Virus record (IMG/VR): IMGVR_UViG_3300027976_003475
Strand: one strand, 5' to 3'
Origin: a virus
Length of the DNA stretch: 64,000 nt
Below the pieces are notes generated by a model, which worked only from the letters and a program-made list of their open reading frames with translations, made no database searches and was not told the origin of the DNA. How positions within the stretch are numbered: the first letter of the stretch is position 1; the number at the start of each line of letters is the position of its first letter. This document shows, piece after piece, positions 4,627 to 56,404 of the stretch. A program made the translations under genes and the position numbers.

Positions 4627-4923
4627 TCAACGCGAGCGCGTGGCCGTGACGTGGATTTTCAGCGGAGGCTCCTCCGCCTCGCGCCCCTTGGCCTTCGACG
4701 CCGCGAGCGACTGCGCGCCCCGGTGAGCGCGCCCCGCGAGGTCGACCGCGACCCGCCCAAGCGCGGCGGCGGCGCCCACCGTCTCGCGAATCTCGCCCTC
4801 GACGCGCCCCGCAAGCTCGCCCGCCTCCTGGCCGACAGCCGTGGCAGCGTCCAGTGCGGCGTGCACCTCCCTGATCGTCGCGCGCGCCTTCGCAAGATCG
4901 CGCAGCATGGACTTGACGCTCAC
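4627..4923 (-). CDS. Hypothetical helical protein, copy 2
   Basis: GTGA overlap with the upstream gene. Confidence 0.55.
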   Translation of the reverse strand: MSVKSMLRDLAKARATIREVHAALDAATAVGQEAGELAGRVEGEIRETVGAAAALGRVAVDLAGRAHRGAQSLAASKAKGREAEEPPLKIHVTATRSR

Positions 4924-5441
4924 GGGCACCTCTTGCCGTGGCTCCGGCCGTGGCCGCCGCGGCGCGTACTGGCGCGGCACTTCCGCGCGTGGCTCCGGCC
5001 GTGGCGCCGGTTGCTCTTGCGCCCGCCGGTGGCCGTGGCCGTGCTCGCGATCACCAGCACCGTCGCGGCGGTGGCGCACCCGAGCACGACCGCCGCGATG
5101 AGCTTGAAAAACCCCGCCGCCCGTTGCTCCGCCGCGCGCGCGGTGGCGCTGGCGTTGCGGATGGCGGCGGCGCCCTCCGAGATGCCTTGGCCGACGCGCC
5201 CGATGTTCGGCCCGATGGTCTGCACCCCCTGCGCGAAGCGCGGCGCTGCCTGCCCCACCTGCTGCGCCCCCTGCCCCACCTGCTGCGCGCCCCGCGTGAC
5301 GGTGGGTGCGTTGCGGTCGAGCGTGGCCGACGAGCGCGCAAGCGCCTCGCTCGCCCGCTGCGCGGCGGCGCTTGCGCGGGCCGCATCGGCTCGGATCGAT
5401 TCCATCGCCGCGGCGACTTCGGAGGGCACAATAGAGCTCAT
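4920..5441 (-). CDS. Membrane-anchored protein with basic tail (putative virion protein)
   Basis: Amphipathic GAQQVGQ repeats, TM LIAAVVLGCATAATVLVIA, then GGRKSNRRHGR; TAAGGA RBS. Confidence 0.65.
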   Translation of the reverse strand: MSSIVPSEVAAAMESIRADAARASAAAQRASEALARSSATLDRNAPTVTRGAQQVGQGAQQVGQAAPRFAQGVQTIGPNIGRVGQGISEGAAAIRNASATARAAEQRAAGFFKLIAAVVLGCATAATVLVIASTATATGGRKSNRRHGRSHARKCRASTRRGGHGRSHGKRCP

Positions 5442-5472
5442 GGCGGGGGCATTCCTTACGGGGTCTTGGGGT

Positions 5473-5790
5473 CTATGGGCAGCGACCATCGGTGCGCGTG
5501 CGAAGCGCCGCGGTCTGCATCAGCGCGCAGAACTTCGCAAGCTCCCGCTCGCCGTAGGAGGCCAAAAGCAACGGGTCGAGCGGGCTGCTGAGGTTCCCTT
5601 GCGTCTGCGCGAGCCGGATGAACTGCGCGGCGCCCTCCGCGACCACGGCACCCACGGCGGCGCGACGCACCAGGGCGTGCGCGTCACGCTCCCCCAGGAG
5701 GAGCTGCCCCGTCGCGAGCGACCCAAAGGAAATCACGAGGCGCAGCCCCGAGCCGCGCAGCGCTGCAACGGAGTTTTCGCCGGTCGCCAT
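5473..5790 (-). CDS. Hypothetical protein
   Basis: Protein-like ORF within the minus-strand operon. Confidence 0.45.
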   Translation of the reverse strand: MATGENSVAALRGSGLRLVISFGSLATGQLLLGERDAHALVRRAAVGAVVAEGAAQFIRLAQTQGNLSSPLDPLLLASYGERELAKFCALMQTAALRTRTDGRCP

Positions 5791-5802
5791 CGCCCTCCGA
5801 CG

Positions 5803-6138: not shown

Positions 6139-7670
6139 CGGTCCCTTCCCGTCGTGTCGTTGCGCTTGCGGCGCGGCTTGGCCTTGGCCTTCATTGCGTG
6201 GTGAATGGTCAGCCCTCGGGCCTTCATTTGCTGGTGCGCCCACATCACATGCGCGGGATTGCCAGACTCATGCGCCTCAAGGTGCGCCGTGTCCCAAAAG
6301 TTATTGTCGAGTGCCCACATCGCGTCGAAGTCACTGTGCAGCGTAATCAACGGCTCCAAACGCCCGAAGATCACCAGCGCTTCGTCGGTATTGGCCCGCT
6401 CGTGCGCGTTCACAAACGCCCGAAAGAGCTGCATGACGCCCGCGGTGGCCTGCCCCCTGCCGGTGGGCAACCCCCCCACCTCCGCCTCGGCTTTGAGGTC
6501 ACAGGCGGCCCACTGGCCGTGCATCGGGTGCCGTTGCTCGTGCGCGTTCACGGCGTCCACCCACGCGCGCGAGCCGTGCGGGGTCTCCGGGTCTTCGCCG
6601 ACCTGGGCCTGCAACCGCAGTCGCTCCTGCGAGACCGGGTGATAGAAGCAGCACGCCACGCTTCCGGGGGCGTGGTCGTCGGTGGTTTCGTAGGGCCCAA
6701 GCGGGGGCATTCCCCCGATGCGCCATTCTGTCCGTTGGTCGTCGCTGATTCGATGGGGGCAGCGCACCCGCACGGCGGCGCACTCCCCCGACGGCTCGCG
6801 CTCCTGCTCGATCGCGTCGAGCACCCGGTCGCACTCCGAACCCGGCTCCACGGTGCCCGCGGGGGCGTCGCACACCTCGCGCAGCACCGCGCGCGCGACG
6901 TCCAGGGCCACGGCCGCCTCGCCCTCCACCCGCCGATACCATCGGGTGCGGCCGGGGGTGTCGCGCTCGATGGCGACGTAGCGCTCCCGAAACAGCGCGT
7001 CGAGGAGCTTCGTCACCGGCGCCGACAGCGTTTCGGGCTTGCCACGCGGCGCTGGAACAACAAAGCGTTCGATCAGCTCGGCCGCGTGCCGATGCTGCCC
7101 CACCATCCGCCGAAACGTGGCCGCGCTGCGGTCCACCGGCTCCCGCGCGTCGGCGGCGAGGTATGCGTCTTGGATCGCCTGGAGAACGGGCGAAAGGGGC
7201 GGCCCGCGCCCCGGCCGACGCCCTTCGGCGTCCCGCGCCGCCGTCGCGAGGCACCGCGCGTGCTCCATGGAGCGGTACGCCAGCGCGCCGAACGGCGACA
7301 GCTCCACCCGCTGCGCCGGAGGCCGCGTGCCGCGGAACCCAACGGCCACGAGGGCGCCCAGGTGCTCCTCCAGCGCCGCGCGGCGCGAAGGCACCGCGAG
7401 CACGGTGTCGGTGAGCGCGCGGCGCACTTCCGGGGCGACCGCGCCCGGCAGCTCGAACCGACCCCGCGCGGCGTTCCACGTCGCCGGGCCGGTGGGCGCC
7501 CACCCGCGGCCGTCGTAGCGGTAAAGCGTCCCGGTGGCCTCACCAGGGCGTTGCTGCACCGCCCACGACCCGAACACCGGGTCATCGGCCTGCACGACCA
7601 CCGCGGCCCGGTGGTTGGCGCCGGAGGCGTCGTTGCGGCGTCGTTGCGGCGGCGTCGCCCTCACGGCCAC
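6135..7670 (-). CDS. Hypothetical protein with RRN/KRN motifs at both termini
   Basis: 511-aa ORF; begins QRRRNDASG, ends KAKPRRKRNDTTGRDR. Confidence 0.7.
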   Translation of the reverse strand: MAVRATPPQRRRNDASGANHRAAVVVQADDPVFGSWAVQQRPGEATGTLYRYDGRGWAPTGPATWNAARGRFELPGAVAPEVRRALTDTVLAVPSRRAALEEHLGALVAVGFRGTRPPAQRVELSPFGALAYRSMEHARCLATAARDAEGRRPGRGPPLSPVLQAIQDAYLAADAREPVDRSAATFRRMVGQHRHAAELIERFVVPAPRGKPETLSAPVTKLLDALFRERYVAIERDTPGRTRWYRRVEGEAAVALDVARAVLREVCDAPAGTVEPGSECDRVLDAIEQEREPSGECAAVRVRCPHRISDDQRTEWRIGGMPPLGPYETTDDHAPGSVACCFYHPVSQERLRLQAQVGEDPETPHGSRAWVDAVNAHEQRHPMHGQWAACDLKAEAEVGGLPTGRGQATAGVMQLFRAFVNAHERANTDEALVIFGRLEPLITLHSDFDAMWALDNNFWDTAHLEAHESGNPAHVMWAHQQMKARGLTIHHAMKAKAKPRRKRNDTTGRDR

Positions 7671-7931: not shown

Positions 7932-10900
7932 TCACCGCCCGCGGCGGCGCGGCGGCGCGGCGGGGGCGCGGGGGCGCGGGTTACTCTTCGGGGTGCCGTC
8001 GAGCGCGGGAGGCAGCCCGACCTGTGTGTGCTTGTATCGGCTTGCGATGCGGACGGCCATCCGCCACTCGTCGTCGCGCAGCGCGCCGACCATGGCTTTC
8101 GCTTCCAGGGCGTGCCCGATGGCGGAATCCGCCGCCGAGAAACCCATATCGTTGCGGTATCTCGCGAGGTCCGCGTCCGACTCCGACAGGATCGACAGCC
8201 CTCGCGAGGCCCACACCTCGACGGCGTTGCGCGGCCCGCGCATGGGGCTTCCGGCGCGGACGATCGAACGGTGCGCCGTGCCCGCAATCTTGATTGCCAC
8301 GGCCACGGCGGCCCGCGCCTTGGACTCCGACAGGCCCTCCGCATGGCGCTTCACGACATGCTCGATGATGGACAGGTCGTAGGGGTTCAGTGGGTTCATG
8401 CTCCGCTTGTCGCGGGCGTATTGCAGGATGACCTGCACTGCCCACTCCTCGGGGGAGAGGTCGTCGCCGTCGCGCGGCTTGCGCGGCTTGCGGACGCCGC
8501 CCACCACCGTCTCATCGTCGGGACGGGGATACCAGTCCGGGCGCCGCGGCTCCTCCGTATCGAACGTCATCGCGCCGCGCGCGGTGTCCAGCACGGCCGT
8601 CGAGTGCGCCTGCTTCTCGATGATCGCCTCCACGAGCTTGCTGTCCAGCGAGCCGTCCACGATCAGGTGTTGGATCAGCACCGGCTCGGTCTGCCCGATG
8701 CGGTGCACGCGATCCTCCGCCTGCGAGACGTTGCCGGGCACCCAATCAAGCTCCGCAAAGACGAGGTTGTGGGCGCGCGTGAGGGTGATGCCGACGCCGC
8801 TCGCGAGGATGCTGCCCACGAACACCCGGCACTTGGGGTCGTGCGGCTGCGACTTGCCGCCCCCGAGGTCGAGGCCCTGGAACTTCACCACCGCTTCGTC
8901 CTTGGCCTGGGGCGCCAGTCCGCCGGTGTGCAGCACCGTACTCCCGGCGCCGAACCGGGCCGTAAACGCCTTCACCAGTGCGTTCTGCACTTCATGGTGG
9001 TGGGCCATCACCACGACGGCCTCAATGCCGTTCTCCATCAGATTCTCAACGTGCTCGACGACGTACGGAACTTTGGCGACTGCGATGTTGCGGCGGGCGC
9101 GCGAAATCTCGCTGATATGGTACGTCTCGCGCGGCAGCTTCAAGAGCTCTGCGGCGGCGGCCTGATAGCCCGCTTCGTCCTTCGCCTCAATCGCCGCGCT
9201 CATCCGCTCGCGGATGCCCTCCGCGGCCTCCATCAGCGCCTCGTACTGCTCGGCCTCCATGTCGATGTCAACGCCCGCGTCTTCGAGGATGCTCGATGGC
9301 AGCATTACGATCTGGCGCATCTTGGCCGGGAGGTCTTTGAGCACGTCGCGCTTCAATCGGCGCACCATCATCGTCCCGCGGAGGAGCTCGAACAGCTCGC
9401 CGGTGTTCGACGCGCCCTTGAACTCCCACCCGTTCGTGTAGCTATTGCGCTGGGGGTCGCAGTAGCGGAACGCGAACGCGAAGAAGTTATCAAACACCGC
9501 GGGCGCGAGGTCGTGGATGTAAGGCCACATCTCGACGACGCGGTTGGGCATGGGCGTGCCCGTCAAGTAGATGCGCGCCCGCGACCGCTGGGAGAGACCG
9601 GGCTTGGTGACGGAGTGCCTGCGCGTGGTCTTGTCGTACGCCTGGAGCCCGAGGATGGACACGGAGCTCTTCTGCTGCTCCTGGCCTGAGCCTTTGATTT
9701 TGTGCACCTCGTCGACCACCAACAGCCCCCACTCCCGCGCCATGAGGTCGCGGAGGATCAGGCTCGGCCTGACGCGCTTGGTGGGCGTCCCTTCGAGCAC
9801 GTCACCGCGTCGGCTGTGCCCACGATGCTCGTCGGGCAGCACCGCGGCCCGCATCGGCTTCCAGCTCGCGTCGCAGAGCTCGTACTGCGGCGCCTTCGAG
9901 CGACGCCCGCGCTTCTCCCACCAATAGGAAAGGGTCTGCTGCGTCCCGAGAACCGACGTCTGGCGGTACGGCTCGCCGTAGCGGGAGAACTCCAGCGCGG
10001 CCTCCCGCGCCTTGTCCTCGCGCCCGAAACGGACGTCGGGCACCACCCGCCCGTTGACCGTATTGCGGACCCCGTACCAGAGCTTGTCGCCGCGCTTCAC
10101 CGCCGGAAGAAGCACGACGTCGTGCACCTGCTCCACGGGGCCAAAGTCCGTTTCCTTGAACTCGACGTCAATCAGCTTCTCGTAGTTGACAATCACGAAG
10201 TTCGCCCACGGAGGGACGGGCGCTTCGGTGTCGTCAGCGACGTAGATCGCGAACGGCCGCGCGAGCCAGCGCTCCGCCTCGCGCTTCCAGTTGGTGAGGA
10301 GCGATGCCGGGGCCACCACGACCACGGAGTCCACGTCGGGCCGGTTGTTGACATAGCCGAGAGCCTGGATCGTCTTCCCGAGGCCCGGCTCATCCGCGAT
10401 CAGGGTGCCGTTGCGCTGCATCGCGTACGCGATGCCGGGGCACTGAAACGGCAGGTACGTTTTACCGGGCGGCGCGATCAGCACCCCGCATGTCTCCCCG
10501 GTCGCAATGGCCGAGCCCGCAATGCCCGAGCCCAGCGCCGCGGCTTCGGCCACGATGTCGTCGGGAATGTCGAACTTGGCCGACAAGTTCGATCGGATAA
10601 GCGTGTAGACCGGGACGATGGTGGCCGCGATCATGCGGACCCCGTGCGGCTCGAACCCGAGGTCTTTCAGCGGCGCCTTCAACCCCTGCACCGCCCACTC
10701 CGGGCCGCCGACGGTGAAGCCCTTGTGACCGACATTGCGGGTGATGGTCAGGCGCGGCACCTCGCCCGGCGCGAGCCCGAGGCCCGTGTCGGCCACGAAC
10801 AGCGCCCACGCGCGCGGCGTCAGGTACAGGTCCGTCTTGAGCTGCGCCATCAGCTCCGCGATGCCCGTGGGGTGGTTGGACGCCCACGGAAGCCACTTGC

Positions 10901-11741
10901 CCGTGGCGGGGTCTTTGCCCGTGGCAAATCCCATGTTTTTCAGTCCGTCGACCCCGACGTAGTTGCGAAAGAAGGCCATGACGTCGGGGAGGATCAGCTC
11001 GTACCCCCGTCCGCGTTTGCTGACGGCCAGTAGCATCATGTCGGGCGAGTAGGGCTCCGCCGCGATGCCGATGCCGTAGGGCGGCACGGGGAGGCCCAGC
11101 GCGGCCGGGTCGACCGTCGGGTACGCCAGCGCGACGGGGGCGCCTCCAGGCCCCGGCGCGTCCGCCGCGCTCTCTCCGTCGGCGGCCTTCTGGTACGCGG
11201 ACCATGCGCCGGAGGTGATCGCGAGCTTGCCGCGCCCCCGTTCCATGAGCGCCTGAGCGCCGTCGAGGTTGTGCGTCGCCCACGGGAGCCACTCGCCGCG
11301 CGAGCCCTTCCCCGAGCGAAACCCCCACTCCCGCATTTGCTCTTTGTTGCCGAACTTTCGGAAGATAGCGAAGATGTCGCCACGGATCAGGAATCCTCGC
11401 GGGCGCTCCCAATCCAGCAGGAACGGGTACTGACTGAGGGGTGCGGACGCGAGTATCACGCCATGCGGCGGGAACTTCGCAGACGGCGCCTCGACGGCTG
11501 GCGCTGTCGGGGCGCCCAGGCGCGCGCGAATGGCAAGCACCGCCTTGGTGGCGCCGCGGACCTTGGCGACGTCCGCGGGCCCGAGGTCCAGCGCGAAGAG
11601 CGTACGGTCCTCTACGGCGTCCACCAGCTCCATGCGGACGCTTCCGCCCTCGCTCATGTAGAGCCGCACGCTTCGCGTGGGGTCGAGCGCCACGTCGCTC
11701 AAAAGACGATCGGCGCCGTTGCGCTTGCGGGGCGGCTTCAT
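7932..11741 (-). CDS. SNF2/SWI2-family (SMARCAL1/HARP-like) helicase with N-terminal extension
   Basis: LIADEPGLGKT, VVAPASL, VVDEVHKIK, LTGTPMPN, GVGITLTRA, ELDWVPGNVSQAEDRVHRIGQ. Confidence 0.93.
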   Translation of the reverse strand: MKPPRKRNGADRLLSDVALDPTRSVRLYMSEGGSVRMELVDAVEDRTLFALDLGPADVAKVRGATKAVLAIRARLGAPTAPAVEAPSAKFPPHGVILASAPLSQYPFLLDWERPRGFLIRGDIFAIFRKFGNKEQMREWGFRSGKGSRGEWLPWATHNLDGAQALMERGRGKLAITSGAWSAYQKAADGESAADAPGPGGAPVALAYPTVDPAALGLPVPPYGIGIAAEPYSPDMMLLAVSKRGRGYELILPDVMAFFRNYVGVDGLKNMGFATGKDPATGKWLPWASNHPTGIAELMAQLKTDLYLTPRAWALFVADTGLGLAPGEVPRLTITRNVGHKGFTVGGPEWAVQGLKAPLKDLGFEPHGVRMIAATIVPVYTLIRSNLSAKFDIPDDIVAEAAALGSGIAGSAIATGETCGVLIAPPGKTYLPFQCPGIAYAMQRNGTLIADEPGLGKTIQALGYVNNRPDVDSVVVVAPASLLTNWKREAERWLARPFAIYVADDTEAPVPPWANFVIVNYEKLIDVEFKETDFGPVEQVHDVVLLPAVKRGDKLWYGVRNTVNGRVVPDVRFGREDKAREAALEFSRYGEPYRQTSVLGTQQTLSYWWEKRGRRSKAPQYELCDASWKPMRAAVLPDEHRGHSRRGDVLEGTPTKRVRPSLILRDLMAREWGLLVVDEVHKIKGSGQEQQKSSVSILGLQAYDKTTRRHSVTKPGLSQRSRARIYLTGTPMPNRVVEMWPYIHDLAPAVFDNFFAFAFRYCDPQRNSYTNGWEFKGASNTGELFELLRGTMMVRRLKRDVLKDLPAKMRQIVMLPSSILEDAGVDIDMEAEQYEALMEAAEGIRERMSAAIEAKDEAGYQAAAAELLKLPRETYHISEISRARRNIAVAKVPYVVEHVENLMENGIEAVVVMAHHHEVQNALVKAFTARFGAGSTVLHTGGLAPQAKDEAVVKFQGLDLGGGKSQPHDPKCRVFVGSILASGVGITLTRAHNLVFAELDWVPGNVSQAEDRVHRIGQTEPVLIQHLIVDGSLDSKLVEAIIEKQAHSTAVLDTARGAMTFDTEEPRRPDWYPRPDDETVVGGVRKPRKPRDGDDLSPEEWAVQVILQYARDKRSMNPLNPYDLSIIEHVVKRHAEGLSESKARAAVAVAIKIAGTAHRSIVRAGSPMRGPRNAVEVWASRGLSILSESDADLARYRNDMGFSAADSAIGHALEAKAMVGALRDDEWRMAVRIASRYKHTQVGLPPALDGTPKSNPRPRAPAAPPRRRGR

Positions 11742-15509: not shown

Positions 15510-18500
15510 TCCTCCGCAAGCGGAACAGCGAGGGGGGCGCGAAGGCGCTGGTAGACGTCGCGATCGACGCGGAGAGGTCGGTGCGTTTGCTCTCCAGCGA
15601 GGGCGCCGGTTTCATTGGCTACCCCCCGCGGGTGCAGCTCGTACGCACCGCGTCCGGGGAGCTGCTGCTCGACATTCCCCTCCACGACGCCACGACGGCA
15701 AGTGTCCGCGATGCGGTGGGCGCGATCATGCGCTTGCGCGCCCGCTTCGCCGCACCAGTCGCCCCTGACGCCACGGCCGCGCCGCTGTCTCCGCTGGAAG
15801 CCGCGATGCTCGACGCGAACGCCCGGCGCGCGTTCGCGGGCGCCTGGGACGCTCCTGCACCCTTTGGGCTGCTGCCACTGCGCGCCGACCGACACCCCGA
15901 CGGGGGCCTGCGGCTGGTGTGGATTCGCGTGGCCGTGCCCGAGGGATTCCTCGAACCGTTGGGGCCCAAGGAGCGCCGCGGCGAGACGGGGCATTTGAAC
16001 CAGAGCACCCTACCGCCGGGCTTCGTCGAGTCCCGCGCGACGCAGGAGACATGGTGGCCGGTCAAGATTGGCTCTCTCGATCCCTCGCCCGAGTGGCGCG
16101 AGGTGGCGAGCTACCGCACCCGGCCGTTTCCCGAAGATCCGCGCGCCTCGAAGACCCTTCACGAAACGCTCGACGACGCGGAGGAGCGCTCGGGTTACAA
16201 GCAACCGGCGAAGCTCCGCGAGGTGCGTCAACGCCACTGGCGCGGCGTGTCCTTCTACCTCTGGCGCCGCTTCCCCGTCGCGCCCGAGGTGATGCAGTCG
16301 TACCCGGACCTCGCGCAATTCTACGCGACCGACATGGTGGCGGCGCAGACCTTCGCAGAGAAGCGCGTGGAGACCGAAGCGCTCGACAACCCGGAGAACC
16401 CGGACGTGACGGTCGAATGGTCCGCGGAGTCGGGCCTGCTGATCCACACGCGCGGGAAAGACCCCGCCATCATGGCAGCCATCCGCGGGCTCCGCGTGGC
16501 GCGTTTCAAATGGTCGCGCACGATGGGCTGCTACTACCGCCCGCAGAGCGTGGGGGTCAGCGAGAGCACCGTGGACATCGACCGCGTGGCGGGCGAACTC
16601 CGCACCGCGGGCCTGACCGTCGCCGTCGACCGCGGCGAGGTGGGCAGCCTGGGGGATGCGAATGTCCGCCGTCAGGCACATAAATTCTGGCGGGCCGAGC
16701 GCTACGCGCAGCGGGGCGAGGCGGCGCTGGAGAAGGCCACCGGCTTCGAGACGCGCGCGGACGGCATCCGCGCGGACCTTCCCGTCGGGGCCCCGACGAA
16801 GCGCGCCGAGCGCGCGGAGGAGCGCGCCGAGCGCGCCGAGGCCAAGGCGGGCGATGAGCTCGCGTACGCAGGGCACGCGGCGTCGGTGTCGGAGAACCTC
16901 GCGCGCGTCGCCGCGGGCTACGAGACCACAGCGACCCTCACCCGGCGCGAGGCAGAGAAGCGCGCCGATGCGTTCGCGGCCCTCTTCGTCCACAAGGTCA
17001 AGGGCGCCGTCGGCGCGGCTCAACTCCGCAGCGACAAGACCGACAACCTCTCCGCGTACAGCATCTCGTGGGTGGTCGTGTACCCACCGGCGGCGGGCGT
17101 GTTGGGCATGGTGCGGTACGACGGGCGGGTGATCGAAGTCGCGGCGCGCGCGACGGCGAAAGTCGTCGAGCGGAACGAGTACCTGTCAGTGCGTAGCCTC
17201 ACCGCCACCGCCGTAGGAGGCCATAACGCTTACCGCGAAGACGTCACCGCCCTGGACGCGCAAGCGATCTACGACCGCGTAATCCAGGCGCTCCCCGGGT
17301 TCGTGGCCGCGCCCGCATCGGCGCGCATTCCCGCATCGGCGCTGGAGCTCGTGACCGACCTCGCGCAGTACGCCACGCGCCGCGCCGCGAAGGTGTCGGC
17401 CGCCGCGGGGCGGCCGGTGCAGTTTCGCGCGTACCCCCACAAGGGAGACGATCCCACCGCGAGCATCGGCTACTTCGGGGCGTGGAGTTACGAACTGTCG
17501 TATCAGATGCGGCAGGTGGACGGGCTTCGGTTCCGTTTCGCCCTCCACAAGTCGTCGGGCGTCTACGGGGCTCCGCGTGAGGACCGATTCACGACCGACG
17601 CGGTGGATTTCGCCGGGCTGTCGATCGAAGAGGCGTTCGAGTTGTTCCTGGCCGGGACGCGCGCGTTGTTCACGCAGACCCCGCTGGTGGCCCCGGCCGC
17701 GCGCAAGGTGCCGCGCCCGCGCGTCGCAGGGGCCTCGCGGGCGACGGCGCCGGAGCGGAGCGGCGTCAGCGGGGTCGAGGCGCGCGACGCCGCTGCGCGC
17801 GACGCCCAGGCCCGGCGCGCGGAGCTGGGGGAGGCATCGGCGGCGGTATCGGCGCAAGCGAGCGCGCGCCTGCGGAGCCTCCAGGCGTCGGCGGAGGCGG
17901 TCTCGTCGCATGAGCAGGCCATCGACCGGGCGAGGGGCGAGGGCCACACGGCGGGGTTCTACCCAACGCCGCCCACCCTCGCGCGCGCGATGGCGGAGGC
18001 GGTGGGCGTGCGGGCCGGTGAGCGGGTGCTCGAACCGAGCGCGGGCATGGGCGCCCTGGTCGAAGAGCTGGTGTCGCGCGGCGCCGCGGTCGACGCCGCG
18101 GAGTTCAACGAAGCGCGCCGCGCGTACCTGCGAGCCGCGTTCGCCGGGCGCGCGAACATTCTCGACGCGGAGGATTTTCTCGTGATGCCCCCGACCCCCT
18201 ACTACGACGCGGTGGTGATGAATCCGCCCTTTGCGGTCGAGGGGATGCGTCAGGCCGACGCGGTGCACGTCGAGCACGCGCTGCGATTCCTGCGCCCCGG
18301 CGGGCGCGTCGTGGCGCTCATGTCGCCGGGCTCCGTGGACGCCTCGACGGGGCGGCGCCGGGCGGCGCTCCACGCGGCGTTGCAGGGCTTCGGGGTGCAG
18401 TGGGTGCCCGTCGAGGCGGGGCGGTTCCGCATCAGCGGGACCGACACCCCCACGGTGATGCTGGTGGCGACCGCGCCGAAAGCGAACCGTCGTCCGCTCC

Positions 18501-22870: not shown

Positions 22871-23663
22871 CGCGGGTGCGGCGGGCGGGCGCGATCTCGG
22901 GCGGGGTCAGCCGCACCGTGGGCGCCGGTGGCGCTGCTACTGGCGCGCGGGAGAGGTCACCGAGGGTGTACGCGGCCTCGTCGCTTCCCACCGGGTTGAT
23001 GTGCGCGAGGTTGGGGCTGATGGCCCACCCGGCGCCGCCCTGGCCGTCCGTCGCGATCATTTGCGACCCGGCGAAGCTGTGATCGTAGGCATCGGCCGCT
23101 TCATGCTGAAGCCGCGTCGCGGCCTCGCGGATGTTTTCGACCGTGCCGTTGTGGGGCGCCTGGAGCACGTCAATGGCGAAGCCGTCGCGCGAGCGCAGGA
23201 AATAGTACACCGTGAACGGCGCGTGACCCGGGCGACGCGAGGGCGCGGGGGCGCGGGGGCGCGGGGGCGCGAGCGCAGCGGGCCGCGCGTTGCGCTTTAC
23301 GGTCGACTCTCGCACCGCATCGCGCACGCCCTGATTGAACGCGGCGAGGAGGGCCTTGTCGTCCCCGATGTCGTAGCGATACGGGCTTCCCGACGCGCCC
23401 ATGTTCCAGAACGCAAGCTCTTGGACGGCGTACAGGAACGAGGCGGGGGACGGCTTCGGCAGCTTGTACGCGCCCGTGCTGTGGCGCTCATGGAGCTCCT
23501 GCTCTGACCGCAGCTCCACCTTCACCGCCTCGCGCCCGAACTCCGCCCCGAGCGAGCGCGCGACCGAGCGCGGGGCCGTGAACCTCACAGGGGCCGCATG
23601 GGGCACCTCGACGGCGAAAACTCTCTGGCCGTACTGCCCCGCCCTGTGTCCGTTGCTCTGCAT
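22854..23663 (-). CDS. Two-domain hypothetical protein split by a KRN/Pro linker
   Basis: ATG overlaps the desulfurase stop; STVKRNARPAALAPP junction. Confidence 0.65.
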   Translation of the reverse strand: MQSNGHRAGQYGQRVFAVEVPHAAPVRFTAPRSVARSLGAEFGREAVKVELRSEQELHERHSTGAYKLPKPSPASFLYAVQELAFWNMGASGSPYRYDIGDDKALLAAFNQGVRDAVRESTVKRNARPAALAPPRPRAPAPSRRPGHAPFTVYYFLRSRDGFAIDVLQAPHNGTVENIREAATRLQHEAADAYDHSFAGSQMIATDGQGGAGWAISPNLAHINPVGSDEAAYTLGDLSRAPVAAPPAPTVRLTPPEIAPARRTRATARR

Positions 23664-32559: not shown

Positions 32560-32656
32560 GATCTTGTCCTTCTGTGGAGCGAACGCTTGTTGCGAAAACC
32601 TGTGTCGGGGGGCGCCCCGAAGCAACCGGGGGCGCCCGATTCAGACGGGCGCGGGA

Positions 32657-33382: not shown

Positions 33383-33481
33383 GGAGATCCTCGTCGTGTC
33401 GTTGAGCAGCCGAATGGTTCGGGCCATATCGGCGTGAAGGGTAGCGCGACCCTTTTCAGAAATGCAAGCGGGGTGCGCTGC

Positions 33482-37999: not shown

Positions 38000-38054
38000 G
38001 GTTCTTCGGGCCTCCTGGCCTTGCGTGTAAGTGTCAGCGATCAGAGCGGTGGCG

Positions 38055-40019: not shown

Positions 40020-42010
40020 CGCGGGCTCACCAGCGCCACCGGCGCGAGGCTCTTCAGGTCGAGCTCGAAGGGCAGATAACCGAGCGCGTTGACCTTGCCC
40101 GTGGAGAGCACGGCGATCTCGCGGGCGAGGCGGGCCGCCTGCGGTACGGTAGCGCGCATCCCGGTCATCCCGTGCCCCTTCACGAACACGGCATAAATCG
40201 CGCGCCCCAGCGCGTCGGGCGCGGTCAGTCGCTCGAACTCCTTGACCACACGCCGCGCGGTCGCGTCGGGGAGAAACTTGTTCTGTTCGTTGCTGAACAT
40301 CGTGGCGTCAGAGAGGTAGCCGCAGCGCAGCCCCCTCGCGTCGCACGACACCAACCCGTCGAGGCCCGCGGCGAATTGCGAGGCGCGGCGAATGTCAAAC
40401 GCCACGTCCACCTCCGCGCCACCCGGCGGCACCGACACGTTGCGGACCACCAGCGGCGTCGACACGTTGCTGGCGTCGCGGTACAGCGCGATCCGTACGA
40501 CCGCACCCGCGGCCGGAAGGGCGACGGCGCAGGCGTCGGGCGCGGCGCACGTCTGCGGCCCGGCGGCGCCGCCGACGATCGCCACCCGCCAGCCCTCCGC
40601 GATGCCCGTCACGCGCAGCGTGGTGCCCAGCTCCGCGCCCACCGTCGGCGGGCTCTGGATGAGGCTCTCGATGAGGTCCGCGAACGGCACGATGTTCTCA
40701 CCGGCGCGCAGCTCCACCACGTTCGGCAGCGCGCGGTAATCGGTCAGCACCGGCTGCCCCGAGGCCGAGGCCGAGGTCGATCGGTACGCCTGGACGCGGT
40801 ACACCCCCGGCGCGACGCGACCGGCGAACGTGGTGCGGTCGGGCTGCTGCTCAAGCTGAATCGCGGGCGCGTCATTGTCCGCCGGGCGCGTCAGCTCCAC
40901 CACCCACGCCGAGCCACCGTCCAGCGGGATCGCGCCGGGCATGGCGTTCGTGAGCGGCGCCCCCATCACCTTCACCGCCGCCAGCGGCTCCGAGGCGTCG
41001 GGCGTCATCGCGGCGTAATCAACGCGCTGATCGCCGCTCGCGCTGATCGACACGCGCTGGCGGCGCGAGGCGCCCTCCCGCGTGGTCACGCGCACCTCGC
41101 GGGCGGTGTTCGCCGTGGCGGCGGGCAGCGGCAGCGCCCACGACACGCCATCCGCGAGCCACACGCCGCGCGCGTCGTCGAGCCGGGTCTCCCCCAGGAA
41201 CGTCGCGCCGTACGGAGGCATCGGAGAAATCACCAGCCGCAGCGGGCGCAGCGTTTCGAGGCTTGTCAGCATCGTCGGCGTGAGGCCCATCGTCGGGGTA
41301 GCGACCAAGCCGGGGGCGGGAGCGGGCGGGGCGCCGTCAAGACCACCGATGAAGTCCACCGGCGGGCGACCACTGCGGTTGATGACCAAGCGGCCCGCGG
41401 GCGCGAACGCCGCCGTGTCCTCGAAGCCGTAGACCCGCGAACGGAAGTCGGGCCCGAGGCGCGCGAGCGCGTCGTACGGGTTCTCGCCAAGCCGCGCGCC
41501 GGGCAGCGTGGCGTCAAGCCAGAGCCAGCAATCGTCGCCGCGCGACGGGTCCACGCACACCTGCGCGGACACATGGTTGAGCGGCGAGCCGGGCTGCTCC
41601 ATCCACACGACGCGAGCGCGGAGACCCACCACCATGCACAGCGCGACGAGTAGCGAGGCCAAGTCCTCGCAGTCACCGCCACCCTTCGGGGCGTTGGTGA
41701 TCGGAGAGACGGTGCGACCGCCCTCCCCTCCGAGCGTCCACAGCACCGTCTGAAGCACCTCCTCCCCAGCGGGGTCGGGGGCGTAGTCGACGAGCAGGTG
41801 CACCGCATCGCCCAACCACTGCACCAGCTCCTCGGGCGTCGGCACTCGCCCGAGGCGCTCCCCAAGCATTGCCGTCAGGCCAGCCCCCAGGATTTTCACG
41901 CGGTCGTCCGCGGCGCCCGCGGCAGCGAGCCGCATGAGCAGGTCGAGCCGCGCCAGCGGGAGCATGGTGGGGGGGATCAGAATGCATCGCGCGCAGATTT
42001 CCGTCGCCAT
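40016..42010 (-). CDS. Transglutaminase-like (Cys-His-Asp) protein with beta-rich C-terminal domains
   Basis: GDCEDLASLL, LNHVSAQV, WLWLDATL; start codon uncertain. Confidence 0.78.
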   Translation of the reverse strand: MATEICARCILIPPTMLPLARLDLLMRLAAAGAADDRVKILGAGLTAMLGERLGRVPTPEELVQWLGDAVHLLVDYAPDPAGEEVLQTVLWTLGGEGGRTVSPITNAPKGGGDCEDLASLLVALCMVVGLRARVVWMEQPGSPLNHVSAQVCVDPSRGDDCWLWLDATLPGARLGENPYDALARLGPDFRSRVYGFEDTAAFAPAGRLVINRSGRPPVDFIGGLDGAPPAPAPGLVATPTMGLTPTMLTSLETLRPLRLVISPMPPYGATFLGETRLDDARGVWLADGVSWALPLPAATANTAREVRVTTREGASRRQRVSISASGDQRVDYAAMTPDASEPLAAVKVMGAPLTNAMPGAIPLDGGSAWVVELTRPADNDAPAIQLEQQPDRTTFAGRVAPGVYRVQAYRSTSASASGQPVLTDYRALPNVVELRAGENIVPFADLIESLIQSPPTVGAELGTTLRVTGIAEGWRVAIVGGAAGPQTCAAPDACAVALPAAGAVVRIALYRDASNVSTPLVVRNVSVPPGGAEVDVAFDIRRASQFAAGLDGLVSCDARGLRCGYLSDATMFSNEQNKFLPDATARRVVKEFERLTAPDALGRAIYAVFVKGHGMTGMRATVPQAARLAREIAVLSTGKVNALGYLPFELDLKSLAPVALVSPR

Positions 42011-42074
42011 CCGGGGACAGTACGCGCGGCGCATCGCGTTGACAACGGCATCGCGCATACCCATACCGGCGGAC

Positions 42075-42449
42075 ATGGCGAACGGTGTGGGGGAGGTCAT
42101 TCGCGCGGCACGCGAGGCACGGGGCACCGGGGGCCGGGCGCTGGCCCGCGCCGTGGGTATTTCAGCCTCCTACCTGTGCGACGTCGAGCACGGACGCCGC
42201 GCGCCGTCCCTGGACGTCCTCACGCGCCTCGCCGCACACCTCTCGATTGAGTCGGCGTTGCGCGATCACCTTGACACCGGCACGGAGGCATGGCTGCGCG
42301 AGACGCCCGGCGTCGTCGCGTTGCTGCGCGCGCTTCGCGCCGCGGGCGCGACGGCCGACGACCTGACGGCGATGCAGCGGGCCGCGGAGCGCCTGCGGGT
42401 CACCCGCTGCGTGGCCGTCCCCGCGGGCGCGGCGTGCGCCCATGAATGA
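42075..42449 (+). CDS. XRE-family HTH regulator
   Basis: IRAAREARG..LARAVGISASYLCDVEHGRRAPS. Confidence 0.85.
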   Translation: MANGVGEVIRAAREARGTGGRALARAVGISASYLCDVEHGRRAPSLDVLTRLAAHLSIESALRDHLDTGTEAWLRETPGVVALLRALRAAGATADDLTAMQRAAERLRVTRCVAVPAGAACAHE

Positions 42450-48084: not shown

Positions 48085-49341
48085 ATGACCCGTACACGCT
48101 CAGAACGTCGCACTGCCCCCTCCCATGACGCAGGCTGCATCGGGGATTACCTCCCGATCGCGGGCGAGCACCAGCTCTCCATCACGACGCCTTCCGTGCC
48201 ACCCGCGGGCGACCTGACGGGCCGACCGGCGACGCAGTACGGGGCGGGTCAGTTTCAGTTCGAGTCGAAGATTCTCGTGCTCGGCGTAGAGCCGACGCTC
48301 GACGCGGCCGGTTTCCAGGCCCGCCTGCAAAGCGCGGTTCGGCAGCTTGTGCCGGGCGTGCAGGTCACCGCCCGCATCGCAAAGGGCGCCGTGAGCAGCG
48401 TGCAGGTGCCGCGCATTCGGGGGACGCCCATGACGTCCCTGGTGCCGCTTCGCACGATCGACGGATGGTGGCTCGGCGTCACCGGGCAGATCAACTCCGG
48501 CGGCGGGTTCGCGGTCAACGGCAACAGCGGATTCAATCGCGCGCTCGCGCGCGCCGTCGCGCAGTCGGTGGCCTTCCGGGGGTTCGTCGATGCGGACTAC
48601 CGTTCGAACATCCCGACGGACGGAGCGCCGCTCGACGCGCAGTTCCGGCGCGACGATGCGTGCACGGGGGGATTCAACCCGGTGAGCGTGTACGCCCGCG
48701 CCTGCACGCGCTTCGCGGGCTCGACGCCGACGCAGCCCGCGGAGCCGCCCCCCCCGAGCCCGGCGCCGCCCAACGGCGTCGAGATGCCCAACGCAGGCGC
48801 CACCGGCGCCACCTGCGCCATCCGCATTCAGAGCAAGATGTTCCTGCGCCCCACGGCGACGTTCGCGACCCGCAACGCCGCCGGGCAGTCGTACCCCGAG
48901 ATTCCCGCCGGGACGGCCGTGCTGGTCACCGGGCCCAAGGTGTCGCAACAGCGCACCCTCGGGCTCTATCCCGTGTCCGTCGCAGGGCGCGCGGGCTTCG
49001 GCGCGCTGAACGCGGACGACTTCCTCGGCTGCACGCTCTACGCGGGGCCGGGCGGCACGGCCCCCACCGTCAGCACGCGGCCCCCGAGCGCCAGCAGCAC
49101 CTCCACGACCCCGCCCGCGCAGCGGTATCCGGGCATCGCGCTGCTCGACACCGGCGGGAGCTCCACGAGCTCCACGAGCACCTACGCCTACGGCGCGGTC
49201 GCATTCCTGGCCGTGCTCGCGCTCGGCGGCGCCGCCCTCTACGCGAGCCGGGCGAGCGAGAGACGCGCCGCGCGCGATCACCGCAAGCCGAACGGCCGCA
49301 GGGCGCGGCGCCGCGGGCGTCGTGTCCGCAGGGCGCGCTGA
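48085..49341 (+). CDS. Tail-anchored protein (putative virion protein)
   Basis: TM YGAVAFLAVLALGGAALY, then DHRKPNGRRARRR. Confidence 0.7.
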   Translation: MTRTRSERRTAPSHDAGCIGDYLPIAGEHQLSITTPSVPPAGDLTGRPATQYGAGQFQFESKILVLGVEPTLDAAGFQARLQSAVRQLVPGVQVTARIAKGAVSSVQVPRIRGTPMTSLVPLRTIDGWWLGVTGQINSGGGFAVNGNSGFNRALARAVAQSVAFRGFVDADYRSNIPTDGAPLDAQFRRDDACTGGFNPVSVYARACTRFAGSTPTQPAEPPPPSPAPPNGVEMPNAGATGATCAIRIQSKMFLRPTATFATRNAAGQSYPEIPAGTAVLVTGPKVSQQRTLGLYPVSVAGRAGFGALNADDFLGCTLYAGPGGTAPTVSTRPPSASSTSTTPPAQRYPGIALLDTGGSSTSSTSTYAYGAVAFLAVLALGGAALYASRASERRAARDHRKPNGRRARRRGRRVRRAR

Positions 49342-49343
49342 AC

Positions 49344-53501: not shown

Positions 53502-53528
53502 CCCCGCGGCCGACCCGTCAGACGGTAC

Positions 53529-54044
53529 ATGAGCAATGCCGTCCGCAAGCTGACCGGCGCCGTCTCGCGTTATGCACCGATCGTCTCCGCCGACATTACG
53601 GCCGCGCCGCCGCAGCGGTCGCGGACGCCCTACCGTCGCCGCGTTGGCGTGCGGTCGAGTACGTTGTCGATCCGCGACCTACGGAGCCTCGCGCGCGACC
53701 CCCAGGAGGCATCGCCCGAGGAGGTCGAGGCCAATGAGTCGCTCCGCCCGAGGACGCGCGCCGCGTGCGAGCACGCAATCAGGCCGTGCCCGTGGGTGGG
53801 TTGTAAATTCAACCTGTACCTCGACGTAAACACCGCGGGAGGGCTGAAATTGAACTGGCCCGAGATTGAGCCCTTGGACATGGACCCGTCGGCATCCTGC
53901 GTGCTCGACATTGCGAAGCGCGGAGCCATGAAGCTGATTTCCATCGGGCGTATGATGAACCTGACGCGCGAGCGGGTGCGCCAACTCGAAGACATCGCCC
54001 TCGCGCGAGCGCGCTCGACCACGGAGAGCCTCGACGTGTTGTGA
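53529..54044 (+). CDS. Sigma-70 region-4 HTH protein with Cys-rich N-domain (myxobacterial-type family)
   Basis: RPRTRAAC..RPCPWVGCKFNLYLDV..CVLD..IGRMMNLTRERVRQLE. Confidence 0.75.
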   Translation: MSNAVRKLTGAVSRYAPIVSADITAAPPQRSRTPYRRRVGVRSSTLSIRDLRSLARDPQEASPEEVEANESLRPRTRAACEHAIRPCPWVGCKFNLYLDVNTAGGLKLNWPEIEPLDMDPSASCVLDIAKRGAMKLISIGRMMNLTRERVRQLEDIALARARSTTESLDVL

Positions 54045-54073
54045 ACTGCTCGGCTGGCGTGCGACTATGCGCC

Positions 54074-56404
54074 ATGCACGCCGTGGAGCTTCACTCCCCC
54101 TTCGACCCCCGCACCCTCCGCTCCGGTCTCTACCGCGCGTCCAGCGCCTCGCCCGCGTACGCGCAGCTTCACGCGCTGTGTGTGCTCGGGAGGGGGCGGG
54201 TGGTGGCGCAGCGCCATTTCGGCGGCGGCGTCAAGAGCATCGTGTGCGAGCTCCGCGCGCCGAAGCGCAACAACGACGGCGCGGGGCAGATCACCCTGGA
54301 CCCGGATTTCTTCCAGGGCGCGCTGAAGGACTATCACCAGTGGGAGGTGAAGTGGTGGCGCGAGGCCATCCAGAACGCGGTCGACGCGGGCGCGAAGAGC
54401 GTGCACTGCTCCGTGCTGAAACTGCCCGACGGCACGGTGCAGGTGCGGTGCGACGACGACGGCCGCGGGATGGATCGCGACACCCTCATCACGAAGTTCC
54501 TGCGCCTGGGCGCGAGCGGAAAGAAGGCCGACGCCGGGGCCGCGGGCGGGTTCGGCAAGGCCAAGGAAATGCTCCTGCTCCCGTGGCTCCAGTGGAGCGT
54601 CACGACGCGCACGACGCACGTCGTCGGGGCGGGGCTTCGGTACGAGACGACGGCCGTGTCCGAGCGCAAGGGGACGCGCCTGGAGGTGGTGATGCCTGCC
54701 GACAACTGCACGCGCATCCAACTCGCGATGGCCTTCGTCGCGCGCTGCAACCTCCCGCACGTCCGCTTCTACTTCCACGGCGACGGGACGGAACTCGCCG
54801 GGACGCAGGCCGCCGCGAAGCCCGGCAAGCTGATCCGCGAGATTCCCGGCAAGGCCAAGCTGTATTTCGCCAAGGGTGCCGAGTCGGAGCTGTCGATTCG
54901 CACCGGGGGCCTGTGGATGTTCAACCGCTACCTGCCCAGCGCGGTGCAGGGTCGGGTGACGGCAGAGCTCATCGGGCGCTCCATCGACCTGCTCACTGCG
55001 AACCGAGACAGCTTCCGCGACTACGACCTTGCGCGCGGGATCGAAGCCCTCGCGGCGGAGATCGCGGCCGACGTGAAAAGCGCGACCAAGGAGCGCGACA
55101 AGAGCCGCAAGGTGTACCGCGGCACGGGGAAGTTTAGCCCCCGCGCGGCGAAGGAACTGGAGGCTAGCCTTGCCGTGGCGTCGGCTGGCGCGATGGAACT
55201 CGCCAGCAAGATCAGCACGGGCAGCGGTGCCTCGGTGCAGCTCGACGCGCAGACGGTCACCCGGATGGGCGACGTCCTGCTGCACGACGGGGGCGCGGGC
55301 GAGGCCGTCGTGACGGACGGAGAACTCCGCGTGGGTGGCAGCCCGGCGGCGGCGGCGGTCGTGGTGTTGTCCGTGACGCCGGTGCTCGGCCAGGAGCACC
55401 TTGAGCGGATTATGAAGCAACTGGCGTGGAGCCCGGACTTCTACGTCGTGAACAATCTTGAGGGGTGGAAGCCCCCGCCGGGCCTCCTGCCGGAGCGCAT
55501 GAACCGCAAGGCGCTCGCGCTCGCGAAGGCGTGGACAGAGCTCTGTCGCTACGTCCTCATCATGCTCAACTCGTCGGCGGAGTTCGGGGTGGGGTGGGTT
55601 TTCGACGACGACACCGGCGCGGGCTATCTGCGGGAGCACGGGCAGCACTGGCTCATGCTCAACCCGTCCGCGGACAAGGCCGATCGCGCCAAGCTGTTCG
55701 ACCCGCAGATCCCGGCTCATCTGAACTGGCTCGTCGCGTGCGCCGTGCACGAGGCGACGCACATGGCGAACGGGATCGACCTGCACAACGAGGCATTCTC
55801 GTCCGCGCTCACCGCGAACATGGCGACGTGCGCGGGCATTTGGGCGATCGCGCCGTTGCTGGTGCAGGCCATCTTTGGCGGCGCCGACGTCCAGCAGGCG
55901 CGGGCGCTCGCGGTGGGCCTCGGGGGCAAGGCCGCTGCGCCCCGCAAGGATCGCGTGGTGGAGCGGATCGTCGAGAAGCCCGTTTTTGTGGATCGCGTGG
56001 TGGAGCGGATCGTCGAGAGGCCCGCCTCGTTGTGGGACGCGGGCATCGCGTCGTCGGGGGCGGCGCGCGAGCTCCGGCTCACCGCGCCGGAGCGGCAGCC
56101 GGGACGTGCACAGCCGCAACTCGGGCTGAAGTTCAACGGCTTGTCGAAGCCCCGCAAGCGTAACGCCGGTGACGCGGGCGATGCTCGACGGGGCCTTGGC
56201 GGTACATGGGCGCGGGCCGACCACACGGCCCACGTTCGACGGCTGTACGAGGAGGCGTTCCGGGCCGATCCGTACTTCATGGAGGAGGTGACGGAGGCCG
56301 TCACGGGGTCGCCCGTGTTCGTGTGGGACAACCTCACGCTGAATCAGACGCGCGCGCTCGGTCGCTCGGCGTACATTGTCGTACTCCAGGCGAGGGGGGG
56401 CTAG
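54074..56404 (+). CDS. GHKL (HSP90/MORC-like) ATPase fused to a HExxH zincin-like domain
   Basis: REAIQNAVDA, DDDGRGM, GGFGKAK; VHEATH..HNEAF; KRN motifs flank the core. Confidence 0.8.
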   Translation: MHAVELHSPFDPRTLRSGLYRASSASPAYAQLHALCVLGRGRVVAQRHFGGGVKSIVCELRAPKRNNDGAGQITLDPDFFQGALKDYHQWEVKWWREAIQNAVDAGAKSVHCSVLKLPDGTVQVRCDDDGRGMDRDTLITKFLRLGASGKKADAGAAGGFGKAKEMLLLPWLQWSVTTRTTHVVGAGLRYETTAVSERKGTRLEVVMPADNCTRIQLAMAFVARCNLPHVRFYFHGDGTELAGTQAAAKPGKLIREIPGKAKLYFAKGAESELSIRTGGLWMFNRYLPSAVQGRVTAELIGRSIDLLTANRDSFRDYDLARGIEALAAEIAADVKSATKERDKSRKVYRGTGKFSPRAAKELEASLAVASAGAMELASKISTGSGASVQLDAQTVTRMGDVLLHDGGAGEAVVTDGELRVGGSPAAAAVVVLSVTPVLGQEHLERIMKQLAWSPDFYVVNNLEGWKPPPGLLPERMNRKALALAKAWTELCRYVLIMLNSSAEFGVGWVFDDDTGAGYLREHGQHWLMLNPSADKADRAKLFDPQIPAHLNWLVACAVHEATHMANGIDLHNEAFSSALTANMATCAGIWAIAPLLVQAIFGGADVQQARALAVGLGGKAAAPRKDRVVERIVEKPVFVDRVVERIVERPASLWDAGIASSGAARELRLTAPERQPGRAQPQLGLKFNGLSKPRKRNAGDAGDARRGLGGTWARADHTAHVRRLYEEAFRADPYFMEEVTEAVTGSPVFVWDNLTLNQTRALGRSAYIVVLQARGG

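Follow-up and report, generated by a model that had tools for sequence, protein, structure and literature searches.

Does a virus with a GC-rich genome mark many unrelated proteins with one and the same short peptide? This question is raised by a stretch of 64,000 nucleotides (nt) from the IMG/VR virus record IMGVR_UViG_3300027976_003475 (hereafter the window; 72% GC), for which a preliminary description, made from the letters alone, had proposed a [K/R]-x-N tag on about 15 proteins and had read it as a signal for cargo sorting or maturation of the virion. Here, we found that the lysine form, K-x-N, is a real short linear motif that is selected as a peptide, and that it marks the hinge between a protein body, i.e. 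a globular enzyme or a transmembrane (TM) anchor, and an Arg-rich terminal extension. Comparison of the sequences suggests that K-x-N is probably a shared assembly or trimming tag. A literature search found no papers on a K-x-N motif.

Is the motif more frequent than composition predicts? We called 71 genes in the window with a codon log-odds model. Their products comprise 20,063 amino acids (aa), in which Lys and Asn are as scarce as had been supposed (2.14% and 2.03% of residues) and Arg is about fivefold commoner than Lys. K-x-N occurs 30 times in these proteins, against 9.7-10.4 expected (z ~6.5), and none of 500 shuffles, which were made within proteins, within 30-aa blocks or within 15-aa blocks, reached this count. 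Within 30 aa of the termini 15 instances were seen against 2.7 expected (z 7.6; 0 of 1000 composition-matched shuffles), while the protein interiors hold 15 against 7.3 (z 3.0). R-x-N is not enriched overall (28 against 34-36 expected) and is depleted near termini (4 against 9.2). The terminal excess of the one and deficit of the other mean that an Asn in an Arg-rich end favours the position +2 from a rare Lys, not from an abundant Arg. The proposed [K/R]-x-N definition was thus too wide: its lysine half holds, across whole proteins as well as near their ends, and its arginine half does not.

The preference is specific for spacing and order. Other arrangements of the two residues are at or below expectation (KN 4, KxxN 7, KxxxN 10, NK 4, NxK 10), and when all 1600 ordered residue pairs at gaps 0-3 are ranked, K-x-N comes third in the window, after PxP and PxxP, which are of low complexity, and first by far in two related loci taken together (L001 and L003, see below; 39 against 7.2 expected, z 11.8). 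As a control served 320 kb of a metagenome-assembled genome of Acetobacteraceae with 69% GC, in which Lys and Asn are similarly scarce; K-x-N was found there 51 times against 46 expected (ratio 1.11), and this flat result argues that the excess is not a property of GC-rich proteomes. The carriers are 17 of the 71 window proteins. An operon at 20120-42100 holds 17 K-x-N, against 10.7 expected under a uniform spread, and the motif is absent from the seven leftmost and the sixteen rightmost genes (2.0 and 3.6 expected, respectively).

The flanks of K-x-N contain more Arg (16.5% vs 9.5%) and fewer hydrophobic residues (32% vs 42%). Six or seven of the 30 sites (KFN, KIN, KVN, KLN, perhaps KDN) have surroundings that are hydrophobic or structured, e.g. 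the domain motif GQQxGFKFNG, and are a class apart from the basic-context tags. The motif GQQxG(F/L)KFNG itself occurs at 29850-29870 (minus strand) in the protein of gene 29029-30390 and its orthologues, at 56120-56140 (plus strand) near the C-terminus of the GHKL protein, and in a second protein of L003 (L003 13780-14595); it may mark a small shared beta domain.

Does the constraint act on the peptide or on the nucleic acid? A DNA or mRNA element of the form AAG-NNN-AAC, a codon-context bias of GC-rich genes, a copied tail or plain chance could each be invoked, the more so since 16 of the 30 instances read AAGCNCAAC and since in a genome of 72% GC frame 0 is the only place for A-rich words. 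The word AAG-NNN-AAC occurs 30 times on both strands, and 26 of these occurrences are in frame 0 on the sense strand of a gene, whichever DNA strand that is; the word hence tracks the coding strand, and synonymous codon usage within the motif is that of the background (AAA in 4 and AAT in 2 of 30). The 42-nt flanks of the 27 instances with full flanks are unrelated (identity 0.34 vs 0.32 at random in-frame sites), the only related pair being a tandem duplicate in gene 36050-37999, and the distance to the start or stop codon varies from 4 to about 33 residues. From one orthologue to the next the middle codon is free and Lys and Asn are fixed, which places the constraint on the peptide. Together with the flat control and the shuffles (0 of 500-1000), the frame, orthologue and flank data largely refute an origin in the DNA itself, in codon usage, in copies of one tail or in chance; we reject such an origin and leave it almost no probability.

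Is the motif kept in relatives? Relatives were traced via homologues of a capsid-like protein (31624-32625). Three syntenic loci, L001 (78% identity), L003 (75%) and L005 (81%), contain 17 K-x-N against 4.3 expected, 22 against 4.6 and 12 against 5.1, respectively; L050 has 12 against 3.2 (z 5.3), L049 8 against 3.1 and L056 6 against 2.0, and the pooled count for the window and these six metagenomic loci is 107 against about 32. L050 is far more distant but syntenic: its methyltransferase is 36% identical, it also encodes SNF2, DpdA and the aminotransferase, and its K-x-N sites include the N-terminus of SNF2 and three positions in the orthologue of gene 25980-28274. In ten aligned orthologue groups K-x-N stands at the same positions amid diverged flanks, with K and N invariant and the middle residue free at orthologous sites in up to five genomes. 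L052 is more distant still (capsid-like protein ~34% identical); its operon has the same gene order and includes membrane proteins with basic C-terminal tails, and it shows no enrichment (1 K-x-N against 1.0 expected, Lys 0.9%, in 11.7 kb of an 18-kb contig). An operon of this kind without K-x-N excess indicates that the motif is a clade-specific layer on a shared particle design, and makes L052 a useful natural negative control. Searches of viral contigs with the capsid-like protein and the ATPase, and of genome and viral contigs with a capsid profile, returned no relatives.

The hinge is clearest in two enzyme families, those of an SNF2 helicase and of a methyltransferase:

7932-11741, minus strand: SNF2 helicase (Pfam).
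11718..11726, minus strand: N-terminal tag of the SNF2 helicase, MKPPR[KRN]G, 5 residues before the shared N-terminal domain.
7980..7988, minus strand: C-terminal tag of the SNF2 helicase, P[KSN]PRPRAPAAPPRRRGR, 17 aa from the end.
15506-18511, plus strand: 1001-aa protein with a methyltransferase domain (Pfam).
15518..15526, plus strand: N-terminal tag of the methyltransferase, MILR[KRN]S, kept in the homologues P0014-P0018 and P0033 (36% identical).
18479..18487, plus strand: C-terminal tag of the methyltransferase, AP[KAN]RRPLRRW.

In all six SNF2 homologues P0058-P0063 (45-100% identity) R-K-R-N is invariant behind a leader of 4-16 aa, and the homologue P0064, which has no N-terminal tag, starts at the domain. 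At the C-terminus, P-K-(S/A)-N with an Arg tail is found in five homologues, and P0062 has a real stop codon (TGA) exactly where this tag would begin. The methyltransferase shows the same duality. Its N-terminus reads M-x(2-7)-K-(R/H/L)-N ahead of the shared N-terminal domain in close relatives and in P0033. The globular part ends ...RFRISGTDxPxVxLVAxxP in 21 homologues, and in 11 of them, down to 42% identity, K-(A/T/Q)-N with an Arg-rich tail of 3-10 residues follows directly; P0016 (72% identical, with a real TGA) and six distant homologues end exactly at the tag boundary. The add-on comes in two forms, a basic leader with K-R-N at N-termini and K-x-N with an Arg-rich tail at C-termini, and is found on unrelated proteins within a single clade of uncultured, GC-rich virus-like elements; to judge from these alignments the tag and its Arg-rich tail are gained and lost as a module in both families.

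The N-terminal domain shared by these enzymes (LL.DVA.D..RSVRL...) lies at 11480-11741 (minus strand) in the SNF2 helicase and at 15506-15760 (plus strand) in the methyltransferase, and also at 25700-25975 (minus strand) in the protein of gene 24887-25975. It is preceded by a K-R-N leader in both enzymes, not in the latter protein, and recurs in P0033 and P0064.

Can Arg take the place of Lys? The gene after SNF2 starts MTRRRPF[KRN]D in L056, and its window orthologue reads PPQRRRND. Arg therefore replaces Lys occasionally, and some of the R-x-N examples of the preliminary description are real substitutes. Distant SNF2 and methyltransferase homologues likewise have R-(P/A)-N-G or R-A-N-P with a basic tail at the same hinge. 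In L051 (metagenome contig GCA_001458635.1, 19.4 kb), whose methyltransferase is without the Lys tag, K-x-N is absent and R-x-N occurs 15 times against 8.2 expected (z 2.7); in six of these 15 Pro comes next, and a number of them are at or near a protein end. This excess may represent a variant dialect of the tag. As distant homologues have R-x-N at the hinge where K-x-N stands here, the two motifs are probably related, though not identical. The R-x-N-P dialect is not used in the window, where R-x-N is unenriched and NP has no preference for a preceding Arg (at -2 in 3 of 51); Pro comes next after K-x-N in 2 of the 30 window sites.

Which other proteins carry the tag? Re-translation of the coordinates placed every K-x-N example that had been listed at its gene:

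5010..5018, minus strand: juxtamembrane tag GGR[KSN]RRHGRS of gene 4920-5441, 16 aa after a TM-like helix.
6159..6167, minus strand: C-terminal tag KPRR[KRN]DTTGRDR of a 511-aa protein (gene 6135-7670).
7632..7643, minus strand: N-terminal RRRN of the same 511-aa protein, an Arg-for-Lys variant.
21556..21564, minus strand: C-terminal tag HKP[KPN]AKRR of a winged helix-turn-helix protein (gene 21541-22665).
23289..23297, minus strand: internal V[KRN]A of gene 22854-23690, conservation uncertain.
24983..24991, minus strand: LDVPP[KRN]SGDMG of gene 24887-25975, 33 aa before the C-terminus.
27690-27698, minus strand: [KPN]HHGGYH of a 764-aa polyvalent-like protein (gene 25980-28274).
27375-27383, minus strand: PR[KPN]RGSQG of gene 25980-28274.
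26010-26018, minus strand: C-terminal AAGIVV[KQN]RRPPPRR of gene 25980-28274.
29245..29253, minus strand: PA[KPN]QRLQGRRG of gene 29029-30390, with KHN at the same place in L005.
33245..33349, minus strand: four tags (KRN, KRN, KHN, KRN) within the first 65 aa, rich in Lys and Arg, of a membrane protein (gene 32657-33427).
36104..36142, minus strand: two tags, RR[KHN]GRPRRSR[KHN]GRPRRS, of gene 36050-37999, directly after the last TM-like helix.
38109..38117, minus strand: HRA[KPN]RALRRK of gene 38055-40019, 16 aa after the last TM-like helix.
49285..49293, plus strand: DHR[KPN]GRRARRRGRR of gene 48196-49341, 16 aa after a TM-like helix.
54263..54271, plus strand: AP[KRN]NDG of gene 54041-56404, ahead of the GHKL ATPase domain.
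56156..56164, plus strand: KPR[KRN]AGD of gene 54041-56404, at aa 706 of 787 and far downstream of the GHKL domain.

Many of these sites are kept in relatives as well. The orthologue of gene 4920-5441 in L056 reads VSR[KKN]RRPRRRR; gene 36050-37999 has one to three copies in the corresponding position of L001, L003 and L005, and gene 38055-40019 has KPN or KKN in L001 and L003. In the membrane protein of gene 32657-33427, which is encoded just upstream of the capsid-like gene, every relative has 3-5 copies; RR[KRN] precedes the helix in 4 of 4, with two to four more copies upstream of it, and L053 has it there too; and the last tag abuts a conserved GLGM(R/K)xLK and the first TM-like helix. 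Both [K-(P/R/A)-N]HHGGYH and AAGIxV[K-(Q/P/L/N)-N]R are found in 4 of 4 relatives of gene 25980-28274, the PR[KPN] site in 3 of 4, and all three recur in the distant L050. For gene 24887-25975, K-(R/P/S)-N is kept in the three of three genomes that cover the stretch (window, L003, L005), the L001 orthologue being without it. The placement of the motif at termini and at domain or tail junctions beside basic tails, common to membrane proteins of the putative structural operon and to large enzymes (SNF2, methyltransferase, GHKL ATPase), bears out what had been described and is what one would expect of a shared signal for recognition or processing: K-x-N lies 4-16 aa after a TM-like helix in four membrane proteins and 12 aa before the first helix in the gene 32657-33427 protein.

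Two of these proteins have further peculiarities. The 33 residues after the K-R-N of gene 24887-25975 (24887-24985, minus strand) are not of basic low complexity, unlike the other tails, and their end peptide VAEHVGLE is conserved in three genomes, so that a released or exposed peptide with a role of its own is possible. In gene 25980-28274 the stretch HHGGYHAxGDP after K-P-N (27640-27700, minus strand) is conserved in five genomes (HHHGHH in L050) and resembles a metal-binding or catalytic motif.

What would such a motif do? It could serve protamine-like basic segments as a structural cap or a turn, with no dedicated reader; the tails would bind DNA or acidic lipid and thereby condense the genome or hold proteins on the membrane. 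Flanks rich in Arg and Lys and poor in hydrophobic residues would suit this role, as would the position of the motif on the basic side of the TM-like helices. However, electrostatics predicts neither the strict choice of Lys over Arg, nor the i/i+2 spacing, nor an invariant K and N around a free middle, and soluble enzymes, too, bear tags, just 5 aa after the N-terminal Met; we consider this explanation distinctly unlikely. Indeed, because electrostatics alone prefers no Lys over Arg and fixes no spacing, a specific reader of Lys and Asn at i/i+2 must exist or have existed.

The reading that we favour is that the Arg-rich extension anchors the protein during assembly and that a cut at K-x-N, after the Asn, frees the body. 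While the particle is built, the basic extension would tether the protein to DNA or to a membrane, on its inner face; one clade-specific factor would act at K-x-N during assembly; and at maturation a cut after Asn, with Lys as P3 and Asn as P1, would release the body from its anchor. A cleavable anchor is suggested by the place of the motif at the hinge and by the way in which motif and basic extension come and go as one module, and likewise by the fixed-free-fixed layout and the multiple copies in a basic N-terminal region. We regard this as quite possible, at somewhat less than an even chance.

The same statistics and conservation would fit equally well if K-x-N were a docking label that is not cleaved, by which a common partner, such as the inner capsid surface, a scaffold or a packaging factor, recruits the proteins while their tails stay in place. 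Multiple copies in the basic membrane protein would then give avidity, and a Pro or Arg after Asn poses no problem for binding. Docking alone, however, leaves the constant position at the hinge between body and extension unexplained, and we found no partner for it; we hold it to be rather unlikely, if far from negligible.

Several observations weigh against the cleavable anchor. Pro follows Asn in several conserved tags (KSNP, KTNP, KLNP), and ordinary endopeptidases cut poorly where Pro follows; self-cleavage of the asparagine-lyase type would fit these sites better, but lyases need a folded context, which is absent here. The N-terminal leaders are only 4-16 aa long. L052 has the same structural operon and no motif, which indicates that K-x-N is not essential to the particle design. 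Furthermore, the fold match of the capsid-like protein is weak (best E 0.037, Z 4.3), and no peptidase family was recognised in the window except for a weak match to Transglut_core, which would equally fit a spike or a cell-wall enzyme.

These last two points concern the following genes of the operon:

31624..32625, minus strand: capsid-like beta-sandwich protein, 311 aa from the inner start, without K-x-N.
40016..42100, minus strand: transglutaminase-like Cys-His-Asp protein with repeated beta domains, first gene of the operon.

The capsid-like gene is the best-expressed-looking gene of the long minus-strand operon, and its family is tiny: 13 homologues are close, and a set of 1.84 billion proteins contains 23 representatives. 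An AlphaFold2 model from a 31-sequence alignment is a beta-sandwich (pLDDT 80, pTM 0.79; pLDDT 46 in an earlier model). In a Foldseek search the first six and about four fifths of the fifty top matches are viral jelly-roll capsids and the rest mainly furin chains; the matches are non-significant (E at least 0.037). The best VIA Z is 4.3, and P23-77 VP16/VP17, SPV1, HHIV-2 and STIV are among the matches there. A virus with a jelly-roll capsid, perhaps with an internal membrane as in PRD1 or P23-77, is plausible on this structural model.

Could the transglutaminase-like protein be the reader? It matches Pfam Transglut_core with E 1.1e-05 and 26.0 bits (cutoff 23 bits), and its putative triad lies in GDCEDL ... 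NHVSAQV ... LDATLP, of which GDCEDL, NHV and LDAT are conserved in L001. As the sole protease-like fold recognised in the window it is only a candidate reader of K-x-N. A complex prediction of its core with the four-tag basic segment scored 0.00, which is evidence neither for nor against binding. Sequence searches of the PDB with the P-loop protein and the transglutaminase-like protein yielded nothing useful, and an Atlas search of 33482-34120 for a hidden protease gave nothing above noise.

A transglutaminase-like Cys-His-Asp protein at the head of the operon also brings to mind a cross-linking handle, in which Lys-Asn isopeptide bonds, made by this enzyme or by spontaneous chemistry, would net cargo and membrane proteins together. 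Such a handle would strictly require a Lys and a carboxamide residue and leave the middle free, and Lys-Asn isopeptide bonds are known from the HK97 capsid. Yet known transglutaminases use Gln and not Asn, a covalent tether would hinder the release of enzymes, and disordered tails give no structural context for autocatalysis. Cross-linking is therefore improbable in our judgement, with only a slight chance of being right.

What else does the window encode? The majority of its 71 genes are ORFans, and Pfam also recognised the following products:

12006-13631: Eco57I-like methylase.
19557-21133: RNase T exonuclease and DpdA.
23663-24877: class-V aminotransferase.
42442-43866: KaiC/AAA_25 ATPase.
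54041-56404, plus strand: GHKL ATPase, with HATPase_c_3 at aa 108-193.
57035-57955: peptidoglycan-binding protein, a lysis candidate.

The preliminary description had seen no motif at the ends of replication, nuclease, methylase, regulatory and lysis proteins, and K-x-N is indeed absent from the KaiC-like ATPase, the DnaC-like P-loop protein, the RNase T exonuclease, the Eco57I-like methylase, the sigma-r4 protein and the peptidoglycan-binding lysis candidate, as well as from all 23 end-of-window genes. No terminase, portal, tail, conjugation or peptidase family was recognised by Pfam among the 71 proteins, the ten operon proteins at 30406-42100 had zero PHROG matches, and a near-identity DNA search with 20000-44000 against phage and plasmid collections found no match. 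The window DNA is present in three freshwater metagenome runs. A scan of genome contigs for the cysteine desulfurase led to distant cellular homologues only and gave no clue to the host. ARAGORN reports an 89-nt tRNA-Pro(CGG) at 59911-59999 (minus strand) within an array of small genes, overlapping the open reading frame (ORF) 59739-60140; this is perhaps a false call, or it is real and invalidates the ORF.

Is a code of this kind known from other viruses? Prohead proteases of phages read P3-x-P1 motifs (A-x-E for SPN3US gp245), of which one propeptide can hold several copies (PMC10052503). The capsid targeting sequence (CTS) of T4 contains L/I-x-E, and in T4-like and phiKZ-like giant phages such motifs are found on many unrelated head, internal and ejected proteins, where leaders can be as short as ~10-24 aa (PMC10052503, PMC7411985). 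The likeness to T4 and phiKZ is one of layout only: a fixed P3 and P1, a free P2 and many unrelated proteins (17 of 71 here), short leaders, several copies per propeptide, and enzymes as cargo in phages of the T4/phiKZ type. The residues differ, being Lys and Asn here and not a small or aliphatic residue and Glu, and the tags stand at both termini and after TM helices. Moreover, no prohead protease (S77/S78/U9/U35, ClpP-like) was recognised among the 71 proteins by Pfam, nor in 30406-42100 by PHROGs, and no HK97-fold capsid, portal or terminase by Pfam and PHROGs; the model of the capsid-like protein is a beta-sandwich and not HK97-like.

Adenovirus and vaccinia virus offer another comparison. 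Their virions are matured by a cysteine protease: adenain cuts the basic core proteins pVII and pX/Mu, and vaccinia I7 acts on A17. Several sites in basic proteins of the core or membrane, and a Cys-His-Asp enzyme of papain type whose gene lies among the structural genes, are shared features, and the trimming of terminal extensions would be another. However, Gly is at the centre of the known consensus sites ((M/I/L)XGX-G; AG-X), the enzyme of the window resembles transglutaminases, does not belong to clan CE and is a candidate only, and the capsid fold here is only weakly jelly-roll-like.

Asparagine peptide lyases, known from viral coat proteins and FlhB/YscU, cleave themselves at Asn (PMC3207474). 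Asn is decisive there too, virion maturation repeatedly involves a cut after Asn, and the Gly or Pro that follows Asn in many tags favours succinimide chemistry. These lyases, however, work only within a folded active site, their nucleophilic Asn being part of one family's conserved domain, and a Lys at -2 has no part in their known mechanisms. The tags do not fit this group: they lie in unrelated proteins, between unrelated flanks and in basic, probably disordered tails of low hydrophobicity. A sortase, exosortase or MYXO-CTERM signal was rejected as well. Its expected order is motif, TM helix and basic cluster, and here it is TM helix, basic residues, K-x-N and basic tail; in addition, soluble enzymes are tagged without any TM helix, and N-terminal tags exist.

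A third comparison concerns the cargo. Polyvalent proteins of phages and conjugative elements are reportedly the subject of Iyer et al. 2017. The large SNF2, methyltransferase and LPD-type proteins of the window resemble them and the DarB-type proteins in that such proteins are thought to travel with the DNA; the difference is that LPD25 is found here only below threshold, in the gene 25980-28274 protein (E 0.0036). We know of no shared peptide tag described for polyvalent or DarB-type proteins, and to our knowledge detailed descriptions of shared peptide tags that load virus particles are limited to a few tailed phages (T4, phiKZ group). For DarB-type packaged methylase-helicases, the listed virion proteome of P1 serves as a comparison (PMC9024508).

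In summary, K-x-N is a three-residue tag, specific for Lys and Asn, on the membrane proteins and DNA-acting enzymes of an almost unannotated virus-like lineage. At its widest, our reading would be that of a hitherto undescribed Asn-directed code for maturation and cargo loading in a new lineage of non-tailed, membrane-containing bacterial viruses, in which unrelated proteins, among them the SNF2 helicase, the methyltransferase and the GHKL protein, would be tied to the genome or the inner membrane by removable Arg-rich anchors and freed by a cut after the Asn of K-x-N, with R-x-N-P seams in other GC-rich viruses as a sister dialect; this wider picture is tentative, and we rate it as doubtful and well short of an even chance. 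It is reasonable to suppose that K-x-N is a signal for virion cargo or cleavage, which would extend the known idea of shared virion tags to an uncharacterised lineage. The natural variants without a tag and the motif-free sister clade allow comparative testing. If K-x-N is a loading or cleavage signal, it predicts which of the enzymes the virus would bring into the cell as anti-defence cargo, and it would imply a new protease or lyase specificity and provide a minimal handle for packaging foreign proteins.

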